NCBI GenBank assembly: GCA_943355005.1 | Contig: CALRDV010000004.1 | Coordinates: forward strand, 7,898-71,897 | Reading direction: 5' to 3' | DNA length: 64,000 nt | Source of the DNA: Patescibacteria group bacterium | GTDB lineage: Bacteria > Patescibacteriota > Microgenomatia > UBA1400 > MFAQ01 | Part shown: positions 7,042 to 59,773 of the stretch, piece after piece | Layout of the letters: every line of letters begins with the position of its first letter | Position numbering within the stretch: the first letter of the stretch is position 1 | Position numbers and translations under genes: made by a program | Notes under the pieces: generated by a model | Databases searched by the model: none | What the model was told of the DNA's origin: nothing | The model's input: only the letters and a program-made list of their open reading frames with translations

Positions 7042-7174
7042 CTCCGAACATTTTTTATATATCGCAGATAAAATAGTCACGGATTGGTTCAGGTTTTGTA
7101 TACTTGGGGTCACAGTGAAAAATCCTTCGCTTGTCGAGGGATTTTTTATTGTCATGAGAGGATGGTAGTTCTGG

Positions 7175-30271: not shown

Positions 30272-31174
30272 TTACTCGAGACCTCTTAGAGCTTTAATTC
30301 TTTCTTTGACGGGAGGGTGAGTGTTGAAAAGGCCCGAGAACCAGCCGATGGAGTCGGATCTGTTTTTAAGCGGATTTGAAATGTATAAGTGAGCAGTTGC
30401 TTTATTGGCTGCTTCGAGGGGTTCTTTGTCGGCCGAAATTTTCTCCAAGGCACTTGCCAGGCCTTCCGGATATTTGGTGAGGGCAGCACCTGACGCGTCG
30501 GCTAAAAATTCACGCCGACGGGAGATGGCAAGCTGAATTAATTGGGCGATGATAGGTGAAAGTAGGGCAAGAACAATTCCAACAATAAAAAGAATCGCTC
30601 CAAGATTGCCATCTTCATTGTCCCGGCTTCGCCCTCTAATGCGGCTTCGTAATAGAATGTCGGCCAGTAAGGTAATCATACCCACTAAGATTGTTACGAT
30701 GCCCATTAAGCGGATATCGTAGTTCCGGACATGACTTAGCTCATGTGCCACCACACCTTCGAGTTCTGTGCGGTTTAGACGAGCCAGAAGGCCAGTGGTG
30801 GCACAGACCACGGCATGCTCAGGATCTCGACCGGTAGCGAAGGCGTTCATAGCAGTATCCTCGATTACATAAAGCTTTGGCATGGGAATTTTGGCGACTC
30901 CCACTAAGTTTTCAGTAACGGTATAGAAATCGAAAAAATCTTTTTTGGTAGCCGGTATAGCGCCGGAGATTGAAAGGATGATACTGTCGGAAAAATAAAA
31001 GCTAGCAAAACTCATGATACCGGAGATGATAAGAGCTATGCCAATAAAACTGGAGTCGAAGCCCATGGAGTAAGTAATGGCATATGCTGAGGCAGTAATA
31101 AAAGCAACAAACAATGCAATTACTACAACGCTACGGAATTTATTTTCGTCGACTTGTTCGTAAAAATTTTTCAT
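30272..31174 (-). CDS. htpX: M48-family zinc metalloprotease HtpX
   Basis: HELSHV (HExxH) sits between TM helices. The protein has a four-TM topology. 300 aa. Confidence 0.8.
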   Translation of the reverse strand: MKNFYEQVDENKFRSVVVIALFVAFITASAYAITYSMGFDSSFIGIALIISGIMSFASFYFSDSIILSISGAIPATKKDFFDFYTVTENLVGVAKIPMPKLYVIEDTAMNAFATGRDPEHAVVCATTGLLARLNRTELEGVVAHELSHVRNYDIRLMGIVTILVGMITLLADILLRSRIRGRSRDNEDGNLGAILFIVGIVLALLSPIIAQLIQLAISRRREFLADASGAALTKYPEGLASALEKISADKEPLEAANKATAHLYISNPLKNRSDSIGWFSGLFNTHPPVKERIKALRGLE

Positions 31175-31223
31175 AAGTTTATCCGGATGGATTCCCGATC
31201 AGGTCGGGAATGACAGGATGGAT

Positions 31224-31811
31224 TTATAGAGAAACTTTGGGGTCACTCATTTCTTCATCCGAGACAGAAAGATGAGCGCCTTCAGAGGCAGTAGCTAGAC
31301 CTTTTTGAGCCTTGAAGCCAAAGGCATTAGCAACTAGATTGCTTGGGAAGGTAACAATTTTTATATTGAAGTCTGCAGTCAAATCAATAACAACTCTTCT
31401 GGCATACATAAGCTTATCGGCAGTATCGCGAAGCTCGTCCATGAGCTTGTTCACTACTTCTACACCCTTCATTTCCGGATTACTTTCGACCAATACTTGA
31501 AGTTTGGGAACCAGATTGCTGATAGCATCGGAAGCGGCTTCAATCTTAGCCATATCTTTACTGCCGGCAGCTTTATCGACCGCTTTTCTGGCGGAGGTGA
31601 TTGCCTCATAGATACCTTTTTCGTGCTTCAAGTAGCCTTTGACAGAATTTTCTAGATTGGGGATTAAGCTGGCTTGTCTTTTTAACTGATTGCCAATATC
31701 TTGAATCGAGGCTGTAATCCTGGTCAGAGCGGTCTGAAACCAGTTGTAGAGAGAGATGACATATAGTCCGATAGCGACGGCAACAACGACGATTAGAGGT
31801 AATAGGTTCAT
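31224..31811 (-). CDS. lemA: LemA-family protein
   Basis: N-terminal TM followed by a LemA-like helical domain. It forms the conserved lemA-htpX gene pair. Confidence 0.7.
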   Translation of the reverse strand: MNLLPLIVVVAVAIGLYVISLYNWFQTALTRITASIQDIGNQLKRQASLIPNLENSVKGYLKHEKGIYEAITSARKAVDKAAGSKDMAKIEAASDAISNLVPKLQVLVESNPEMKGVEVVNKLMDELRDTADKLMYARRVVIDLTADFNIKIVTFPSNLVANAFGFKAQKGLATASEGAHLSVSDEEMSDPKVSL

Positions 31812-34253: not shown

Positions 34254-34256
34254 AAG

Positions 34257-34285
34257 AAAATCTCTCCCTAGTGGAGAGATTTTTT
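34257..34285 (+). terminator. Rho-independent terminator after tRNA-Asp
   Basis: TCTCTCC pairs with GGAGAGA across a CTAGT loop, followed by a T6 run. Confidence 0.6.
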
Positions 34286-34375: not shown

Positions 34376-34831
34376 ATGGATATTTTTTCAGCACCCACAA
34401 CCGTCTATCGAGTCGATGGGCCGCCCAATAGGGGCTTATGGTATAACCCCGATGGAAAGTTCGTCGGAGAAATTCACAACAACCTATCATTTTGCCACGC
34501 AAGTGCATTGGAAATGCCTTACGACAAAACCTTAGTGGGTTGGCGTTCTTGCACAGAGACGCTAGAAGATCTCCTGCTCTGGATTTCGTTAGAAGAGTTT
34601 GTCCAGCTTGAGAGTAGGGGTTTTAAGGCATCGGTTTACGAAGCTCATCAAACGAAAACCTATATTCACATAGACCATGCGACGGGGCTTCAAATGCCTC
34701 ACCTGGTCTTCAAGAAAGACGCAGCACGATTGATCCGTCTTCTCTCGGTTAGGGAACTTGGTCTTCAACTCGAGGAAGACAAGCTGATTTCTTCAATCAA
34801 CTTAAGCCAGCAACAAATAGTCCCTCGCTAG
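34376..34831 (+). CDS. Hypothetical protein (151 aa), GC-elevated
   Basis: ORF of about 46% GC against a local background of about 38%. No motif. A terminator hairpin at 34821-34845 overlaps the stop codon. Confidence 0.45.
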   Translation: MDIFSAPTTVYRVDGPPNRGLWYNPDGKFVGEIHNNLSFCHASALEMPYDKTLVGWRSCTETLEDLLLWISLEEFVQLESRGFKASVYEAHQTKTYIHIDHATGLQMPHLVFKKDAARLIRLLSVRELGLQLEEDKLISSINLSQQQIVPR

Positions 34832-34854
34832 TCGAGGGATTTTTATTGCATAGA

Positions 34855-34941
34855 GGGACTCGAAATGCCGGAGTCGAACCCGTAACTGTTTCGGCGAGGT
34901 GGGTCCGAGAGAATTCCGAAGGGATTACTCGAGGGAGTCTC
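34855..34941 (+). ncRNA. Candidate structured RNA element, copy A (unclassified)
   Basis: It shares the core ATGCCGGAG(T/C)CGAACCCGTAAC(T/G)GTTTCGGCGAGG and GGTC(C/T)CGA...GAGGG(G)AGTC with copy B at 41753-41831. The closing stem GGGACTC/GAGTCTC covaries with B's GTGGGAC/GTCCCAC. An internal hairpin carries a GTAAC loop. Confidence 0.3.
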
Positions 34942-41752: not shown

Positions 41753-41831
41753 GTGGGACGAGGAATGCCGGAGCCGAACCCGTAACGGTTTCGGCGAGGC
41801 CGGTCTCGAACAAAAGTGAGGGGAGTCCCAC
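41753..41831 (+). ncRNA. Candidate structured RNA element, copy B (possible cis-regulatory leader of HD gene)
   Basis: Closing stem GTGGGAC/GTCCCAC. The core ATGCCGGAGCCGAACCCGTAACGGTTTCGGCGAGG forms a 9-bp hairpin with loop GTAAC. The element ends 45 nt before the HD-gene ATG. Confidence 0.3.
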
Positions 41832-42992: not shown

Positions 42993-43028
42993 TTTCCGGA
43001 TGGATTCCGGGTCAAGTCCAGAATACGA

Positions 43029-47728: not shown

Positions 47729-47844
47729 AGTATTGATTGTAATACAACAGATGAATCCCCGCTTTCGCAAGGAAGACGGTGGAGTGAGATTGCCGCGGAG
47801 TACCTCGCAATGACGAAGAGTGAAATATATTTTATAATGAAATA

Positions 47845-55397: not shown

Positions 55398-55523
55398 ATT
55401 CGTTATTTTACAGGGCAGCGGAGTGTAAATGGAGCGGGATAGGGGAATCGGACCCCCTTCTCATCCTTGGGAAGGATGCATTCTACCGGTGAACTAATCC
55501 CGCGATGGCTTATTTTATGCTAG

Positions 55524-55663
55524 GTGGAGTGAGATTGCCACAGCTCGAGTACGAGATTCGCAATGACGGTCTTTGTCATTCCTGCGCAGGCAGGAATCCA
55601 TTCAATTATTCCGAATTCTGTATTTATTTGATGGATTCCGGGTCAAGCCCGGAATGACAAGGT
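55524..55663. repeat. Cluster of dispersed palindromic (MITE/REP-like) repeat units
   Basis: Three units: GGTGGAGTGAGATTGCCACAGCTCGAGTACGAGATTCGCAATGACGG; GTCATTCCTGCGCAGGCAGGAATCC; and GATGGATTCCGGGTCAAGCCCGGAATGAC. Related copies lie at 31183-31225, 42996-43030, 47752-47825, 58761-58898 and 59521-59690. Confidence 0.65.
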
Positions 55664-55700
55664 TGATGAATGAGTGGTTAAGATGTATTAGAATAGAGGC

Positions 55701-56390: not shown

Positions 56391-57450
56391 CAGGAAGGGC
56401 CAGAACTAGCCAGAAAGTAAAATTGAGCCAGATGTAGAAGAAGCTGTTGTTGAAGAAACTGTGAAAAAGTATCGTGAACATAAATATCTTGATGGGCAAA
56501 GAGATCTCAGCCAGAGCCTTCTTTATCAATACGAAGAAAGTGATTAATCCTGCCAACCCCGTAGTGGCAGCAATAGCAATATAACTATTGTCTATCTGGA
56601 ATCTATCTCCGGTAATGTTCCTTAAGGTGTTATAACCCCAGCCGAACAGTGGCCTTTGGATAAATAATTCGAGCCCTGTTCTCCAGCTGTCAAAACGGGA
56701 AAAAATTGAAAAAGTTCTTAGTAAATTAACCCCTTCTCCAAAAGGCTTAGGAATAATCCAAATAAGTAAACCTAAACCTAAGAGAAATAAGGTTAGAGAG
56801 TATTTTTTATTTACGATTAACAAATAAACAATACCCAAAAGGAAACAGAGGTAGGATGCTCGAGAAAAGGTCAGAGCCAAAAGAATTATTAACGGCAAAC
56901 TAGCCAACCAACTCCCCAAAGAAATAAATGACAGAGCGCTTGCCGCCAGAATTGCCCCGGTGAAGTTTGGATCGTAAAGAGAGCCAATCAAACGAAAATA
57001 GTGATCATCAAAGCCGATCAGTTTCAAATATCTCATGTCCGGGAATAATAAATATTGAAGAGCACCAAGGAGACAAAAAATTGCCAAGGAAATTAGAGCC
57101 GGTTTTAATATATTTTTTTTGGAGTTTAATTTGGCGGCGAAGTAAACTGATGGGTAGGCAAACAATCTACCCAAATAGAGGAGGGGATAGATAATTCCCC
57201 CGCTTTGAAGATTTTTCAGATTAAACACCAAAGAAAGCAGAGCAACTCCTAGAAACCAAGCCAAGGGCATAAATAACTTATCAGTATAGATTTTGGCGTG
57301 GTTCTTTCTTCCTACAATAAGTGAAACGGTAAGCAGACCAAGGACGATATCCAAGAGGTAAACATTGCCAATGGAGCCGGGAATTGAAAAAGCAAGTAGT
57401 TGCCCAAATGGCCAGACAAAAATGGAAAGAATTAATAATAAATAAGTCAT
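56368..57450 (-). CDS. Polytopic membrane protein, O-antigen ligase/polymerase (Wzy_C)-like
   Basis: About 10 TM segments with a large periplasmic loop. The annotation follows the glycosylation-cluster context. 360 aa. Confidence 0.45.
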   Translation of the reverse strand: MTYLLLILSIFVWPFGQLLAFSIPGSIGNVYLLDIVLGLLTVSLIVGRKNHAKIYTDKLFMPLAWFLGVALLSLVFNLKNLQSGGIIYPLLYLGRLFAYPSVYFAAKLNSKKNILKPALISLAIFCLLGALQYLLFPDMRYLKLIGFDDHYFRLIGSLYDPNFTGAILAASALSFISLGSWLASLPLIILLALTFSRASYLCFLLGIVYLLIVNKKYSLTLFLLGLGLLIWIIPKPFGEGVNLLRTFSIFSRFDSWRTGLELFIQRPLFGWGYNTLRNITGDRFQIDNSYIAIAATTGLAGLITFFVLIKKALAEISLPIKIFMFTILFHSFFNNSFFYIWLNFTFWLVLALPVKGYTQE

Positions 57451-58937
57451 TTTGTCAGTTTAAATATTTGAATTCCCAATTTATTTGTATTTACCAAAAC
57501 CCCCTTGATATTTCCCGAGTCCTCCCCTATCGTTACCAAATAATCATACCCCGAAAAGTTTGTGACCCATGAAGTATGATCAAAATCACGAGGGAAATAA
57601 TATAGATTGTGCAGCTTATCTACGATTATTTTACTGTCTTTTGGAAGACTTGCGACAAAGCCATCCGCATCAATAAAGATTCCAGGCAGGCGAAAATATT
57701 GAGAGGTTAAAAGAGTGTTTGTGTCTACCCTACCCAACAAGAACGGAATGTATTTTTGCATAGCCAGCAAGCGAAGCCCTAAGATTAAAAAGCCCGATAA
57801 AATAACTGCCCAAAATGTGATTTTTTGATAGATTGCATTTTTTATAGTGCTTAGGTAGACAATAACCGAAACAATTAGAGCCGGAAAGTAAGGCAAGAAA
57901 TACCTGGTGGAAGGTGGGACCAGAATCATGGTGAGAATACTGCCGAGTATGCCTACTACGGCAATTTTTCCAGCAATATTGTTTTTTTGCTTCAGAGAAA
58001 TTATGGCTAAGATAAAAACCAATCCCACTAGTGGAGAAACAAAATCATCAAAAGGTTTTGTGAGATACCATGGCGTAAGCAAAACGTGCTGAAAAGCACT
58101 TCCAATACCCGAAAATGAGTTGTCTGTAAGACCACTAAACAACGGATAAATTGGATTTCCGGTAAACCTGTATGCCAAATAGAACCAAGGAGAAGCCACC
58201 AAGATTGCAGGAAAAATGATTTGAGGACCAAACACAATACTATAAATCGCCAAAGTACCGAGCGCGAGCCATTTAGTGCCTATTGCCAGCCCCAAAAAAA
58301 TGCCTCCTATTTTCCAAGAACCTTTAATACAAAAATATAAAGCCAAAGCTTCCAAAAAAGTTCTAATGAGATCTATGTAGGCACTTCCAGACTGCCAGCT
58401 CACTAGCCAGGTGCAGTAAAAAAGAGAAACGCCAATCAATTTCCACAATGTGGTTTGTTTAAAATTCTCCAGAATTTTCCAGATGACATATCCCGTTCCT
58501 ATTCCGGCTAAGTATTGGACCAATTTGGGTCCAACGGTGCCGGTGAAGTGGATGAGAGGGGTGAAAATGGTTTCGGCTAGTCTTGGCATGACCGAGTAAT
58601 AAAGTAGCCCACCCGGGAAATACCATTGGTGCTTTAAAAGCCACAATTTTGGGATGGTCAGGTGGTACCAGAGCGCGTCGAAGCCGAGCTCGGGGGTGAA
58701 GACGAGGAGAAAATTGAGGAGGGCTAGTAAAATGATGGGGACTAAAAGAAGCACTACTAACCTGGATTGCCACAGCTCGAGTACGAGATTCGCAATGACG
58801 TGGGTGGAGGGAGATCGATTAACAGCTATTTTGTCATGCCGGACTTGATCCGGCATCCAGGCTTTTCTGGATTCCGGGTCGGAGTCCGGAATGACGTCAA
58901 TTATTTTTGAGTTAAGAGTTAGTTTTGGTTTTCCCAT
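57447..58937 (-). CDS. GT-C fold membrane glycosyltransferase-like protein (ArnT/PMT-like); N-terminal ~55 codons are repeat-derived and probably not coding
   Basis: Many TM helices followed by a C-terminal soluble domain. The 5' end of the ORF (58761-58937) coincides with dispersed repeat units. Confidence 0.45.
   Translation of the reverse strand: MGKPKLTLNSKIIDVIPDSDPESRKAWMPDQVRHDKIAVNRSPSTHVIANLVLELWQSRLVVLLLVPIILLALLNFLLVFTPELGFDALWYHLTIPKLWLLKHQWYFPGGLLYYSVMPRLAETIFTPLIHFTGTVGPKLVQYLAGIGTGYVIWKILENFKQTTLWKLIGVSLFYCTWLVSWQSGSAYIDLIRTFLEALALYFCIKGSWKIGGIFLGLAIGTKWLALGTLAIYSIVFGPQIIFPAILVASPWFYLAYRFTGNPIYPLFSGLTDNSFSGIGSAFQHVLLTPWYLTKPFDDFVSPLVGLVFILAIISLKQKNNIAGKIAVVGILGSILTMILVPPSTRYFLPYFPALIVSVIVYLSTIKNAIYQKITFWAVILSGFLILGLRLLAMQKYIPFLLGRVDTNTLLTSQYFRLPGIFIDADGFVASLPKDSKIIVDKLHNLYYFPRDFDHTSWVTNFSGYDYLVTIGEDSGNIKGVLVNTNKLGIQIFKLTK
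58761..58898. repeat. Dispersed palindromic repeat units
   Basis: CCTGGATTGCCACAGCTCGAGTACGAGATTCGCAATGACG is a near-exact copy of 55527-55566. TGCCGGACTTGATCCGGCA and TTCCGGGTCGGAGTCCGGAATGACG palindromes follow. Confidence 0.6.
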
Positions 58938-59773
58938 TGGAAGGTGCGGACGGTTAGTGATTGGACTGCCATCAAGTAAGCCAAAAATAATCCCGCCGTG
59001 CCGTCCAGGATTCCAGCTTTAAAGAAATAATTGACTTTAAATTTGAGCAGGGGATAGAAAATTAGACGAAACCAGGAAAATGGTTTGTTTTCTAAATTTA
59101 AATATTTCGCATCAATGGGACTGTACTTTCCCATTCTGTTCGAAAATGCAGACACAAAATGATCTTTCCGGTGATAGAGAGGTGATGCCAGCTCCCCTAC
59201 CCTACCTTTGATTTTCCAAACTTCATGGACAGTTCTAAAAAAATTTCCGGCGCTCCGCTTGGCCAACCTGAGAATTTTTATGTTTCCAGTTTCACCATGG
59301 CTTAAGGGCTGATGAAAAATGACATCTTTGCGACGTATACAGTAACCTGAGCACTTTGGATCTTTGAGGGTTTCAATTATTTCTCTTTGAAGCTCACTTC
59401 CCACATATTCATCATCATCCACAAATAGTACCCAGTCGGCCTTGGTCTGCTCTAAAGCGAAGTTTCTTTGGGCTGAGAAGTCGGAGTTGAGTGGGTGAGA
59501 GATGTATTTTATTTTTGATTTTTTGTTTTGGTCCAGATGGATCCCCGCCTTCGCGAGGATGACATTTGCGGAATTTCTGGATTCCGGGTCAAGCCCGGAA
59601 TGACGGGTGACGGTACCTGGATTCCAGGTCAAGCCCGGAATGACTGAAGTTGAGTCGAGGATGACAGAAATTGAATCCTGGATTACGATGATTTCGTCGG
59701 CGAAAGAAATTGACTTTAATAACTGTGAACTAAGAATCGAATTATTTGTAATGATGGCGACAGCTAGTTTCAT
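58919..59773 (-). CDS. GT2-family glycosyltransferase carrying an in-frame repeat insertion
   Basis: MKLAVAIITNN...ADEIIV and DDDE are GT2 motifs. Residues about 34-83 (DSISVILDSTSVIPGLTWNPGTVTRHSGLDPESRNSANVILAKAGIHLDQ) are encoded by repeat units at 59521-59690. Confidence 0.55.
   Translation of the reverse strand: MKLAVAIITNNSILSSQLLKSISFADEIIVIQDSISVILDSTSVIPGLTWNPGTVTRHSGLDPESRNSANVILAKAGIHLDQNKKSKIKYISHPLNSDFSAQRNFALEQTKADWVLFVDDDEYVGSELQREIIETLKDPKCSGYCIRRKDVIFHQPLSHGETGNIKILRLAKRSAGNFFRTVHEVWKIKGRVGELASPLYHRKDHFVSAFSNRMGKYSPIDAKYLNLENKPFSWFRLIFYPLLKFKVNYFFKAGILDGTAGLFLAYLMAVQSLTVRTFQWENQN
59521..59690. repeat. Tandem/dispersed palindromic repeat units inside the GT2 ORF
   Basis: CTGGATTCCGGGTCAAGCCCGGAATGACG at 59576-59604 and CTGGATTCCAGGTCAAGCCCGGAATGACT at 59617-59645 are 41 nt apart. 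GAGGATGACA occurs twice. Confidence 0.6.

Follow-up and report, generated by a model that had tools for sequence, protein, structure and literature searches.

A family of tagged hairpin repeats, partly within the open frames of two envelope genes, in a Collierbacteria-like member of the Patescibacteria

CGTC-tagged repetitive extragenic palindromic sequences (REPs), grouped as families CGTC-1 to CGTC-4 by Di Nocera, De Gregorio and Rocco (2013), bear a CGTC (often TGTC) tag, stems of 8-9 bp that nearly always begin with AT, loops of 4-5 nt and an unpaired tail of 3 nt, mostly CCA; copies also occur within genes, and no associated transposase was found (PMC3733652). These families include dRS3 of Neisseria, the Rickettsia palindromic elements RPE-4 and RPE-6 are likewise CGTC repeats, and the copies are mainly head-to-head dimers with clusters being rare, although those of Neisseria and Wolbachia also cluster (PMC3733652). 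In the main text of Chenal et al. (2025; PMC11893778), the Neisseria element is redefined in oriented form as NTS, CGTCATTCCCGCGMAVGCGGGAATCYRG, and SsnA, a GIY-YIG enzyme of 94 aa, is reported to bind NTS and to cut beside it in single-stranded DNA only and on one strand only. The same text presents Ssn biochemistry for Neisseria and Wolbachia, describes ssnA genes as commonly flanked by the motif and traces related motifs and nucleases across phyla, and Patescibacteria are absent from it. Membership of the nuclease in CDD family cd10448 is a further mark of this system (PMC11893778). The present analysis concerns a stretch of 64,000 nt (the window) from a Patescibacteria group bacterium (assembly GCA_943355005.1, contig CALRDV010000004.1, positions 7,898 to 71,897), which holds 13 hairpin units and one half unit of a single repeat family distributed over six loci.

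These units are quite probably CGTC-tagged REPs, belonging to the motif superfamily of dRS3/NTS, RPE-4/RPE-6 and the Ssn-related motifs (SRM), and would serve as substrates of Ssn-type nucleases, their intragenic copies being tolerated. A family of this kind is already known; its extension to Patescibacteria, a long form of the hairpin and translated arrays in two genes are added here. The proteins of the window have homologues named Candidatus Collierbacteria or Microgenomates, and the host is, within the Patescibacteria, Collierbacteria-like. A literature search pairing Patescibacteria with 'extragenic palindromic' found nothing relevant.

Tagged hairpins of the window and their described relatives

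A strict grammar of the family recovers seven short and three long units in the window, compared with a mean of 0.01 per type in shuffled sequence (n=200, adjacent two-base blocks permuted). The 26-mer GGATTCCGGGTCAAGCCCGGAATGAC is exact at 55633-55658 and 59579-59604 and carries one mismatch at 59619-59644, with an expectation of zero for the 26-mer in shuffles, and the 36-mer GATTGCCACAGCTCGAGTACGAGATTCGCAATGACG is shared by 55533-55568 and 58765-58800 with 36/36 identity and unrelated flanks. An earlier examination of the letters of the window, termed here the sequence-only reading, had proposed a dispersed REP-like palindromic family made of three related types. As regards a REP-like palindromic family, this proposal holds: all three types are present at coordinates shifted by a few bases and form one family with a common YGTC tag, a stem starting with AT and a tail. 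The near-identical copies proposed for its first type are the 36-nt pair, accompanied by a shorter variant at 47785-47815; GTCATTCCTGCGCAGGCAGGAATCC was located at 55575-55599; and the copies it had called degenerate are real (31188-31215, 43001-43027 and 58868-58896). Further units not listed in that reading lie at 58832-58859, 59538-59564 and 47752-47778, together with a half unit at approximately 59653-59666. Single units measure 27-36 nt, and their arrangements include two clusters of three units each, a head-to-tail array and two pairs that are joined tail-to-tail, with the tag on the minus strand in 11 of 13 units; ten of the 14 units, the half unit counted, fall within 4.2 kb of the envelope-glycosylation cluster (Table 1).

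Read along the tagged strand, a clean short unit comprises (C/T)GTC, an 8-bp stem from AT, a loop of 4-5 nt and CCA(G/T). The tag is TGTC in five of the eight clean short units, CGTC in two and AGTC in one, and CGTC in all three long units; the tail is CCAT or CCAG in each of the eight clean short units, and long units end in CCA or CTCAC. The long form, with the sequence CGTCATTGCGAATCTCGTACTCGAGCTGTGGCAATC, presents the tag and an outer stem starting with AT (CGTC-ATTGC...GCAAT-C) around an interior of 21 nt that contains a 4-bp inner stem, CTCG-tact-CGAG. This interior is larger than the 4-5-nt loop of CGTC-tagged REPs, and the form lies outside their four described families. The unit at 58868-58896 deviates from the short form in having 7 pairs and an 8-nt loop. 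Folded as single-stranded DNA, intact units reach -7 to -9 kcal/mol (z -2.7 to -4.6). In an alignment of 11 units, one of them taken from an orthologue and the other ten from the window, 95.5% of the stem cells were paired and 13 cells showed changes on both sides of the stem, compared with 4.7 +/- 1.4 in shuffles, none of 500 of which reached 13; sliding the 3' partner by one column reduced pairing to 41-58%. The hairpin is therefore kept by compensatory change, and the unpaired tag and tail are kept as sequence.

The tag, the 8-bp stem from AT, the loop of 4-5 nt and the CCA tail are shared with the CGTC-tagged REPs, as are the presence of several stem types per genome, the translated intragenic copies and the lack of an adjacent transposase. 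The differences lie in the host, Patescibacteria being a group outside the survey of Di Nocera et al. (PMC3733652), and in the arrangement, since the window units form mostly head-to-tail arrays and tail-to-tail pairs and not head-to-head dimers. The tag, stem start and tail are also those of NTS and the Ssn-related motifs, which resemble the window units further in clustering near surface-related genes. The SRM pattern HGTCWYN(0-2)YYVSBRHN(0-5)WNVSBRGN(0-2)RNCYNB matches only 59537-59564 in the window (shuffles 0.08); it is narrower than this family, fitting neither the 5-nt-loop type nor the long form.

Conserved hairpins beside and within genes could instead function mainly in RNA, as transcript-end stabilisers, attenuators or terminators that tune the flanking envelope genes, with any link to a nuclease being incidental; roles of this sort have been proposed for classical REPs. 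For most units the tagged strand is indeed the sense strand of the local genes, the stems of 59618-59645 and 59538-59564 contain G-T pairs, which are tolerated in RNA, and 31188-31215 and spacer units of orthologues stand just after stop codons, similar to the 'uni-REPs' (PMC3733652). However, terminator scoring found no unit to be terminator-like and none with a T run after it, and an Rfam search of the window returned tRNAs only, with no family matching the units. Three units separate the divergent starts of tRNA-Gly and the Big-domain gene and are upstream of both, seven lie within coding sequence and two are antisense to the local gene. A role in RNA would moreover leave the conserved unpaired tag and tail, and the gene-flanking cassettes described below, unexplained. 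It is thus an unlikely account of the family, though an RNA-level role is possible for some of the spacer copies.

The sequence-only reading had further likened the repeats to MITEs (miniature inverted-repeat transposable elements), which, in the strict sense, would be internally deleted copies of DDE-type insertion sequences that are moved in trans and bear terminal inverted repeats (TIRs) and target-site duplications. Such elements, as typified by the Correia elements of Neisseria, are likewise non-coding and multi-copy, occupy spacers and occasionally genes, and break assemblies, but they span 100-400 nt with TIRs and target duplications, and the window units have neither. Two observations would suit a MITE, namely the tail-to-tail pairs at 55574-55659 and 58832-58896, which resemble two ends around a lost interior, and a 9-nt direct repeat, GGATGGATT, reported by the sequence-only reading to flank a palindrome and found here at 31185-31193 and 31216-31224, around the unit at 31188-31215. 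The 9-mer, however, equals the common extended tail AATCCATCC(CC) of tandem arrays, so it probably represents the remaining tail of a unit that preceded it head to tail and was truncated. Flanking duplications are absent from all other units, and the boundaries of identical copies coincide exactly with those of hairpin, tag and tail, as displayed by the 36-nt and 27-nt identical pairs, whose flanks are unrelated. The tail-to-tail pairs mirror the flanks of GIY-YIG cassettes and not those of any DDE element, and the window holds no transposase gene. Units of 27-36 nt without TIRs beyond the hairpin and without a consistent target-site duplication lend no support to MITEs in the strict sense, and descent from a DDE-type element is scarcely credible. 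A CRISPR array was rejected as well, in agreement with the sequence-only reading, given irregular start-to-start spacings of 40, 3946, 12631 and 11813 nt, units in both orientations and no cas operon in the window.

Table 1. Repeat units of the window and the two genes that contain units in frame. Structures are given for the tagged strand; z refers to the DNA fold.
Feature	Position	Strand	Structure	Setting and remarks
Short unit	31188..31215	-	tGTC-ATTCCCGA-cctga-TCGGGAAT-CCAT; DNA fold -7.6 kcal/mol, z=-3.2	49-nt spacer between LemA-family gene (31224..31811, -) and M48 peptidase gene (30272..31174, -); preceded by a second AATCCATCC copy that overlaps the LemA stop codon
Degenerate short unit	43001..43027	-	Tag CGTA by mutation, stem weakened, z=-0.5	Decayed; between converging GreA-like gene (ends 42992) and PD-(D/E)XK nuclease gene (ends 43029)
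Degenerate short unit, 4-nt loop	47752..47778	-	CGTC-TTCCTTGC-gaaa-GCGGGGAT-TCA	Upstream of HPF-like gene (likely start 47728)
Shorter long-unit variant	47785..47815	-	cGTC-ATTGCGAGGTACTCCGCGGCAAT-CTCAC	
Long unit, type (i)	55533..55568	-	CGTC-ATTGC-GAATCTCG-tact-CGAGCTGTG-GCAAT-C, tail CTCACTCCACC	Between tRNA-Gly(CCC) (55430-55503, -) and Big-domain gene (55701+)
Short unit, 4-nt loop	55574..55600	+	tGTC-ATTCCTGC-gcag-GCAGGAAT-CCAT; z=-4.6	Tail-to-tail with 55632-55659; spacer 31 nt (55601-55631)
Short unit, 5-nt loop	55632..55659	-	tGTC-ATTCCGGG-cttga-CCCGGAAT-CCAT; z=-4.5	Holds the multi-phylum 26-mer
Long unit	58762..58800	-	36 nt identical to 55533-55568, tail CCAG	In frame in membrane-protein gene
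Short unit	58832..58859	+	tGTC-ATGCCGGA-cttga-TCCGGCAT-CCAG; z=-4.6	Antisense inside membrane-protein gene; tail-to-tail with 58868-58896
Short unit, enlarged loop	58868..58896	-	cGTC-ATTCCGG-actccgac-CCGGAAT-CCA	In frame in membrane-protein gene
Short unit, 4-nt loop	59538..59564	-	tGTC-ATCCTCGC-gaag-GCGGGGAT-CCAT	In frame in GT2 gene
Short unit	59578..59605	-	Exact copy of 55632-55659	In frame in GT2 gene
Short unit	59618..59645	-	1 mismatch (stem G-T pair)	In frame in GT2 gene
5' half unit	59653..59666	-	tGTCATCCTCGAC...	Truncated first member of the GT2 head-to-tail array
GT2 glycosyltransferase gene	58919..59773	-		284 aa; insert at about residues 36-84
Polytopic membrane protein gene	57447..58937	-		496 aa; in-frame insert of about 44 residues

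Units within two envelope genes

Six full units and the half unit are located in coding sequence, in frame, in two adjacent envelope genes that encode a family 2 glycosyltransferase (GT2) and a polytopic membrane protein. The sequence-only reading had placed most copies in intergenic regions, which is right for about half of them and wrong for these. Both host genes retain open frames and intact conserved motifs. The GT2 product, also entered in the public record at 284 aa (P0001), exceeds its insertion-free orthologues of 241-242 aa by about 40 residues, all of which fall, in the orthologue alignment, within one variable linker flanked by 'IIVIxDS' and 'KIKxFxHPLN'. Read on the sense strand, the linker presents the half unit and then three full units, head to tail and open in the frame of the gene, and the repeat-encoded peptide reads ...VIPGLTWNPGTVTRHSGLDPESRNSANVILAKAGIH... 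The AlphaFold model of the protein has a modest mean predicted local distance difference test (pLDDT) score of 61, and residues 36-84 score below 50 between the confident strands 27-32 and 88-92.

The same linker varies among other Collierbacteria. It contains one unit with a 4-nt loop in locus L121, one decayed unit of the ATTGCGAG type in L123, a CGTCATCGCGAGC...GGCGATCCAG unit together with an inverted long unit in L143, and a single unit, TGTCATTCCGGGCTACGACCCGGAATCCAT, in L144, and several GT2 orthologues have no unit in the linker. The points of insertion are shifted by a few codons among these relatives and both open unit frames are used, which argues for repeated events or turnover and not for one static insertion. 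The membrane protein provides a second case, with 496 aa compared to 442-452 aa in its orthologues. The start MGKPKL, which precedes the insert, and the 19-nt overlap of its gene with the stop of the GT2 gene are both conserved, and the insert of about 44 residues (a 46-column alignment gap) corresponds to three units at 58762-58896 that occupy the N-terminal tail of the protein, the alignment resuming at the first hydrophobic segment after the insert. In L143 the membrane protein bears a different three-unit insert at the same place. In L070, a locus of Gottesmanbacteria, three units of the family lie within one open frame of 647 aa. As read from the sequence, short units each lack stops in two of the three frames of either strand, and open in-frame arrays are therefore the expected remnant of purifying selection.

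In-frame palindromic repeats within genes of a reduced genome, with the host genes intact and with arrays encoding tens of extra residues, are also a feature of the Rickettsia palindromic elements. The classic RPE-1 is 100-150 nt in length, in contrast to the arrayed units of 27-36 nt in the window, and the lineage and the genes concerned differ; moreover, unlike the Rickettsia elements, the same two linkers hold different units in different relatives of the window lineage. This would make the latter a second reduced-genome lineage, besides Rickettsia, that tolerates intragenic hairpin arrays, in the same two linkers across relatives. The repeat-encoded segments are translated in gene calls, where pseudo-peptides such as VIPGLTWNP, RHSGLDPESR and VILAKAGIH recur and distort alignments, family models and length statistics of proteins of the candidate phyla radiation (CPR). 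A full-text literature search for one typical repeat-derived peptide, VIPAKAGIQ, found nothing.

Nuclease cassettes and the distribution of the family

The sequence-only reading had named a restriction of the repeats to the window as grounds for giving up a dispersed family; scans with the 26-mer and with the long-unit pattern instead found abundant copies elsewhere. Synteny with Collierbacteria contigs extends over the region at 52-61 kb (acyltransferase, GT2, membrane protein, Wzy_C, Big-domain protein, tRNA-Gly, YgjP-like protein and PIF1 helicase), and ten units in 4.2 kb compared with one unit in each of the syntenic 20-kb loci L121 and L123 therefore indicate local expansion in the lineage of the window. 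The exact 26-mer occurs at a minimum of 120 loci in more than 20 phyla by genome scan, and its hosts among the matches listed comprise Bacteroidota, Nitrospirota, Chloroflexota, Beta-, Delta- and Alphaproteobacteria, Planctomycetota, Spirochaetota, Firmicutes, Armatimonadota, several CPR groups and one Woesearchaeota bin. Across 120 of these 26-mer loci among the matches listed, a CCA tail is present in 207 of the 246 units detected. The long-unit pattern is represented by at least 123 copies at no fewer than 120 metagenome loci, several of them on contigs of 0.8-1.1 Mb; such related contigs carry many long units. The exact 40-mer of the window accounts for 19 of the 123 long-unit copies among the matches listed, and in metagenome copies the inner stem covaries between CTCG/CGAG and TTCG/CGAA.

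Two smaller observations concern the reach of the 26-mer. Only 12 stretches on 11 contigs were matched in viral sequences; two of these contigs, classified as viral and represented by L265 and L276/L270 (IMGVR_UViG_3300025714_000452 and IMGVR_UViG_3300003667_000196), bear 6 and 10 exact 26-mers on one strand, and the remaining nine bear one each. An exact 26-mer also lies at 2247-2270 of L057 (JACQXV010000161.1), a groundwater contig binned as Candidatus Woesearchaeota, which reflects either a real presence across domains or a binning error with co-occurring CPR bacteria.

Evidence for a dedicated enzyme comes from genes that are bracketed by the units themselves. In L099 and L065, a GIY-YIG gene encoding 94-96 aa is flanked on both sides by exact 26-mer units. 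The long-unit scan uncovered four further loci of low GC content, L186, L220, L250 and L264, each with one GIY-YIG gene of 96-97 aa whose product shares 47-59% identity with the L099 protein, belongs to Pfam PF01541 and aligns with the L099 type through the C-terminal 'NPxWxDLY' segment, which is lacking in a second, shorter GIY-YIG family of the CPR. These four genes are bracketed on both sides, within about 100 nt, by YGTCATTGCGAG...GCAATCC units, with up to three tandem copies upstream and one inverted copy downstream. The innermost units in L186, L250, L264 and L099 have their tags distal and their tails proximal to the gene, and downstream of the L220 gene the units are fused as a head-to-head pair. 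Candidatus Collierbacteria is the source of the L186 protein (NCP47275.1 / PIP85750.1), which has Collierbacteria proteins as neighbours; for the Collierbacteria-type nuclease, PF01541 is the only Pfam match and the nearest solved structure is a UPF0213 protein (E = 0.0055).

A motif-gene-motif cassette, formed with the 26-mer in L099 and L065 and with the long form in the Collierbacteria contigs, and a nuclease consisting of a single GIY-YIG domain of 94-97 aa are both properties of the NTS/Ssn system. The window differs from that system in lacking an ssn gene, and the long bipartite hairpin used by the Collierbacteria cassettes would imply a different specificity. In place of the associated transposase that the sequence-only reading had suggested seeking, the partner of the units is most likely an Ssn-type GIY-YIG nuclease, bracketed by units in related Collierbacteria contigs. 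The tail-to-tail pairs of the window, at 55574-55659 and 58832-58896, match the flanks of the cassettes in polarity and could be gene-less derivatives of such cassettes.

Proteins of the L099 type share about 70% identity across Nitrospirota, Betaproteobacteria and Syntrophales and number at least 7979 at E <= 1e-8, and the contigs that bear either small GIY-YIG family are mostly below 2 kb in length. This identity across phyla and these short contigs fit a repeat-associated gene that moves horizontally and breaks assemblies; the repeat units, too, probably break assemblies, many nuclease genes lying on contigs below 2 kb. The best 120 homologues of the L099 nuclease include no named CPR match, and the link to a Collierbacteria nuclease was obtained from the metagenome long-unit loci and not from this homologue search.

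The second small GIY-YIG family (79-88 aa, PF01541) was rejected as a partner, as in all four lineages examined its genes accompany tRNA genes and a different hairpin, with no CGTC units nearby. In CPR genomes its gene stands just 5' of a complete tRNA gene, overlapping the start of the latter, and is preceded by a second copy of a 5' tRNA fragment and by a conserved hairpin about 40 nt in length, CCTGCCCGCA...TGCAGGCGGG(T), which is absent from the window; the loci are L123:14580-15150, L125:3740-4340, L131:3740-4320 and L137:3740-4320. A 3' fragment of tRNA-Gly also follows the gene in L123, where the element fills exactly the spacer that holds three CGTC units in the window (55504-55700). 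The features of this family resemble those of a homing-type element with the D-loop region of tRNA genes as its target.

Small tagged hairpins with a dedicated gene are equally characteristic of the GTAG REPs and bacterial interspersed mosaic elements (BIMEs) of Enterobacteria and Pseudomonas, which also reside in spacers, are probably handled as single-stranded DNA and are served by REP-associated tyrosine transposases (RAYTs), whose gene is flanked by its own repeats. Mobilisation of the window units by an IS200/IS605-like Y1 transposase of the RAYT type, as in the gammaproteobacterial REP/BIME systems, would suit an unpaired tag on a small hairpin, a trait common to both systems, and Y1_Tnp genes (PF01797) are present in three of 120 long-unit loci among the matches listed (L163, L207 and L250). 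Yet the tag is YGTC and not GTAG, the enzyme of the GTAG systems being an HUH Y1 transposase, and the Y1 genes of the related contigs have no flanking units, the nearest unit being about 1 kb away. The upstream flank in L163 and L207, which are identical in sequence, is instead a different, GTAG-containing hairpin, CCTACGAGG-accat-CCTCGTAGG. The window contains no HUH/Y1 motif, and no transposase was associated with the CGTC repeats by Di Nocera et al. (PMC3733652), all of which renders a RAYT-type enzyme very improbable for this family. The RAYT-like genes, with the motif LMPNHFHLM, occupy L163:5632-6357, L207:3080-3790 and L250:9930-10595 of CPR-like metagenome contigs, and genomes of this type may hold both REP superfamilies, each with its own enzyme.

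Under the favoured assignment to CGTC-tagged REPs, the units would act as hairpins in single-stranded DNA, and a small Ssn-type GIY-YIG nuclease would bind and nick them on the tagged strand only, by analogy with Neisseria and Wolbachia. Spread of the units would be tied to this nuclease, whose gene, bracketed by inverted units, would resemble a tiny insertion sequence; the enzyme serving the units of the window may be encoded elsewhere in the genome or may have been lost. Copies would persist where the harm is small, as in short spacers and flexible protein linkers, and in the linkers only stop-free insertions with lengths that are multiples of three would survive. Survival only of such harmless in-frame insertions would explain the two translated three-unit arrays in GT2 and its membrane partner.

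Several points weigh against this assignment. Regular-expression and tblastn searches found no GIY-YIG gene in the window (tblastn E >= 9), and among the matches listed the nuclease gene is present in only two of 120 loci for the 26-mer and four of 120 for the long unit; the link is therefore one of cassette architecture and not of general proximity. The published SRM pattern recognizes one unit out of 13 and, to our knowledge, no CPR element has been shown to be cleaved or to be mobile. The strand bias is a further difficulty, with 11 of 13 tags on the minus strand and G enriched on the plus strand. A G-rich strand is usually taken to be the leading one, so that the tag would miss the lagging-strand template, which is the strand most exposed in single-stranded form.

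A bolder proposal, and a rather doubtful one, is that the elements are still mobile in Collierbacteria, with a nuclease newly specific for ATTGC...GCAAT and with the two linkers as true hot spots of repeated and independent insertion. If true, hairpin arrays would generate in-frame differences in length among surface-modifying enzymes in a bacterium that is episymbiotic and has a reduced genome. That the 26-mer is identical in more than 20 phyla, a DPANN archaeal bin among them, possibly reflects recent transfer of nuclease cassettes between phyla as opposed to ancient inheritance. The CGTC/Ssn system is probably extended to Patescibacteria by these findings. Ssn enzymes are candidate site-specific nucleases for single-stranded DNA, and the Collierbacteria cassette, with an enzyme of 97 aa (NCP47275.1) and a distinct hairpin of 35-40 nt, is a testable candidate for a new specificity.

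Other repeats in the window

Two further sets of repeats were encountered in the window. A 51-nt repeat, GGGAC..GAATGCCGGAG.CGAACCCGTAAC.GTTTCGGCGAGG..GGTC, is found at 34855-34905 and 41755-41805 with 86% identity, at a distance of about 600 nt downstream from tRNA-Asp for the first copy and of about 50 nt downstream from tRNA-Thr for the second. It has no convincing Rfam match, the best being asX2 with 21 bits against a gathering score of 70, and the two copies may be a pair of small RNA paralogues. Three related hairpins of the AAAAATCCCTCGCTAGTCGAGGGATTTTT type, bracketed by A-rich and T-rich tracts, are located at gene or tRNA ends (7118-7146, 34256-34284 and 34816-34844) and look like a shared bidirectional terminator motif that is unrelated to the CGTC family.

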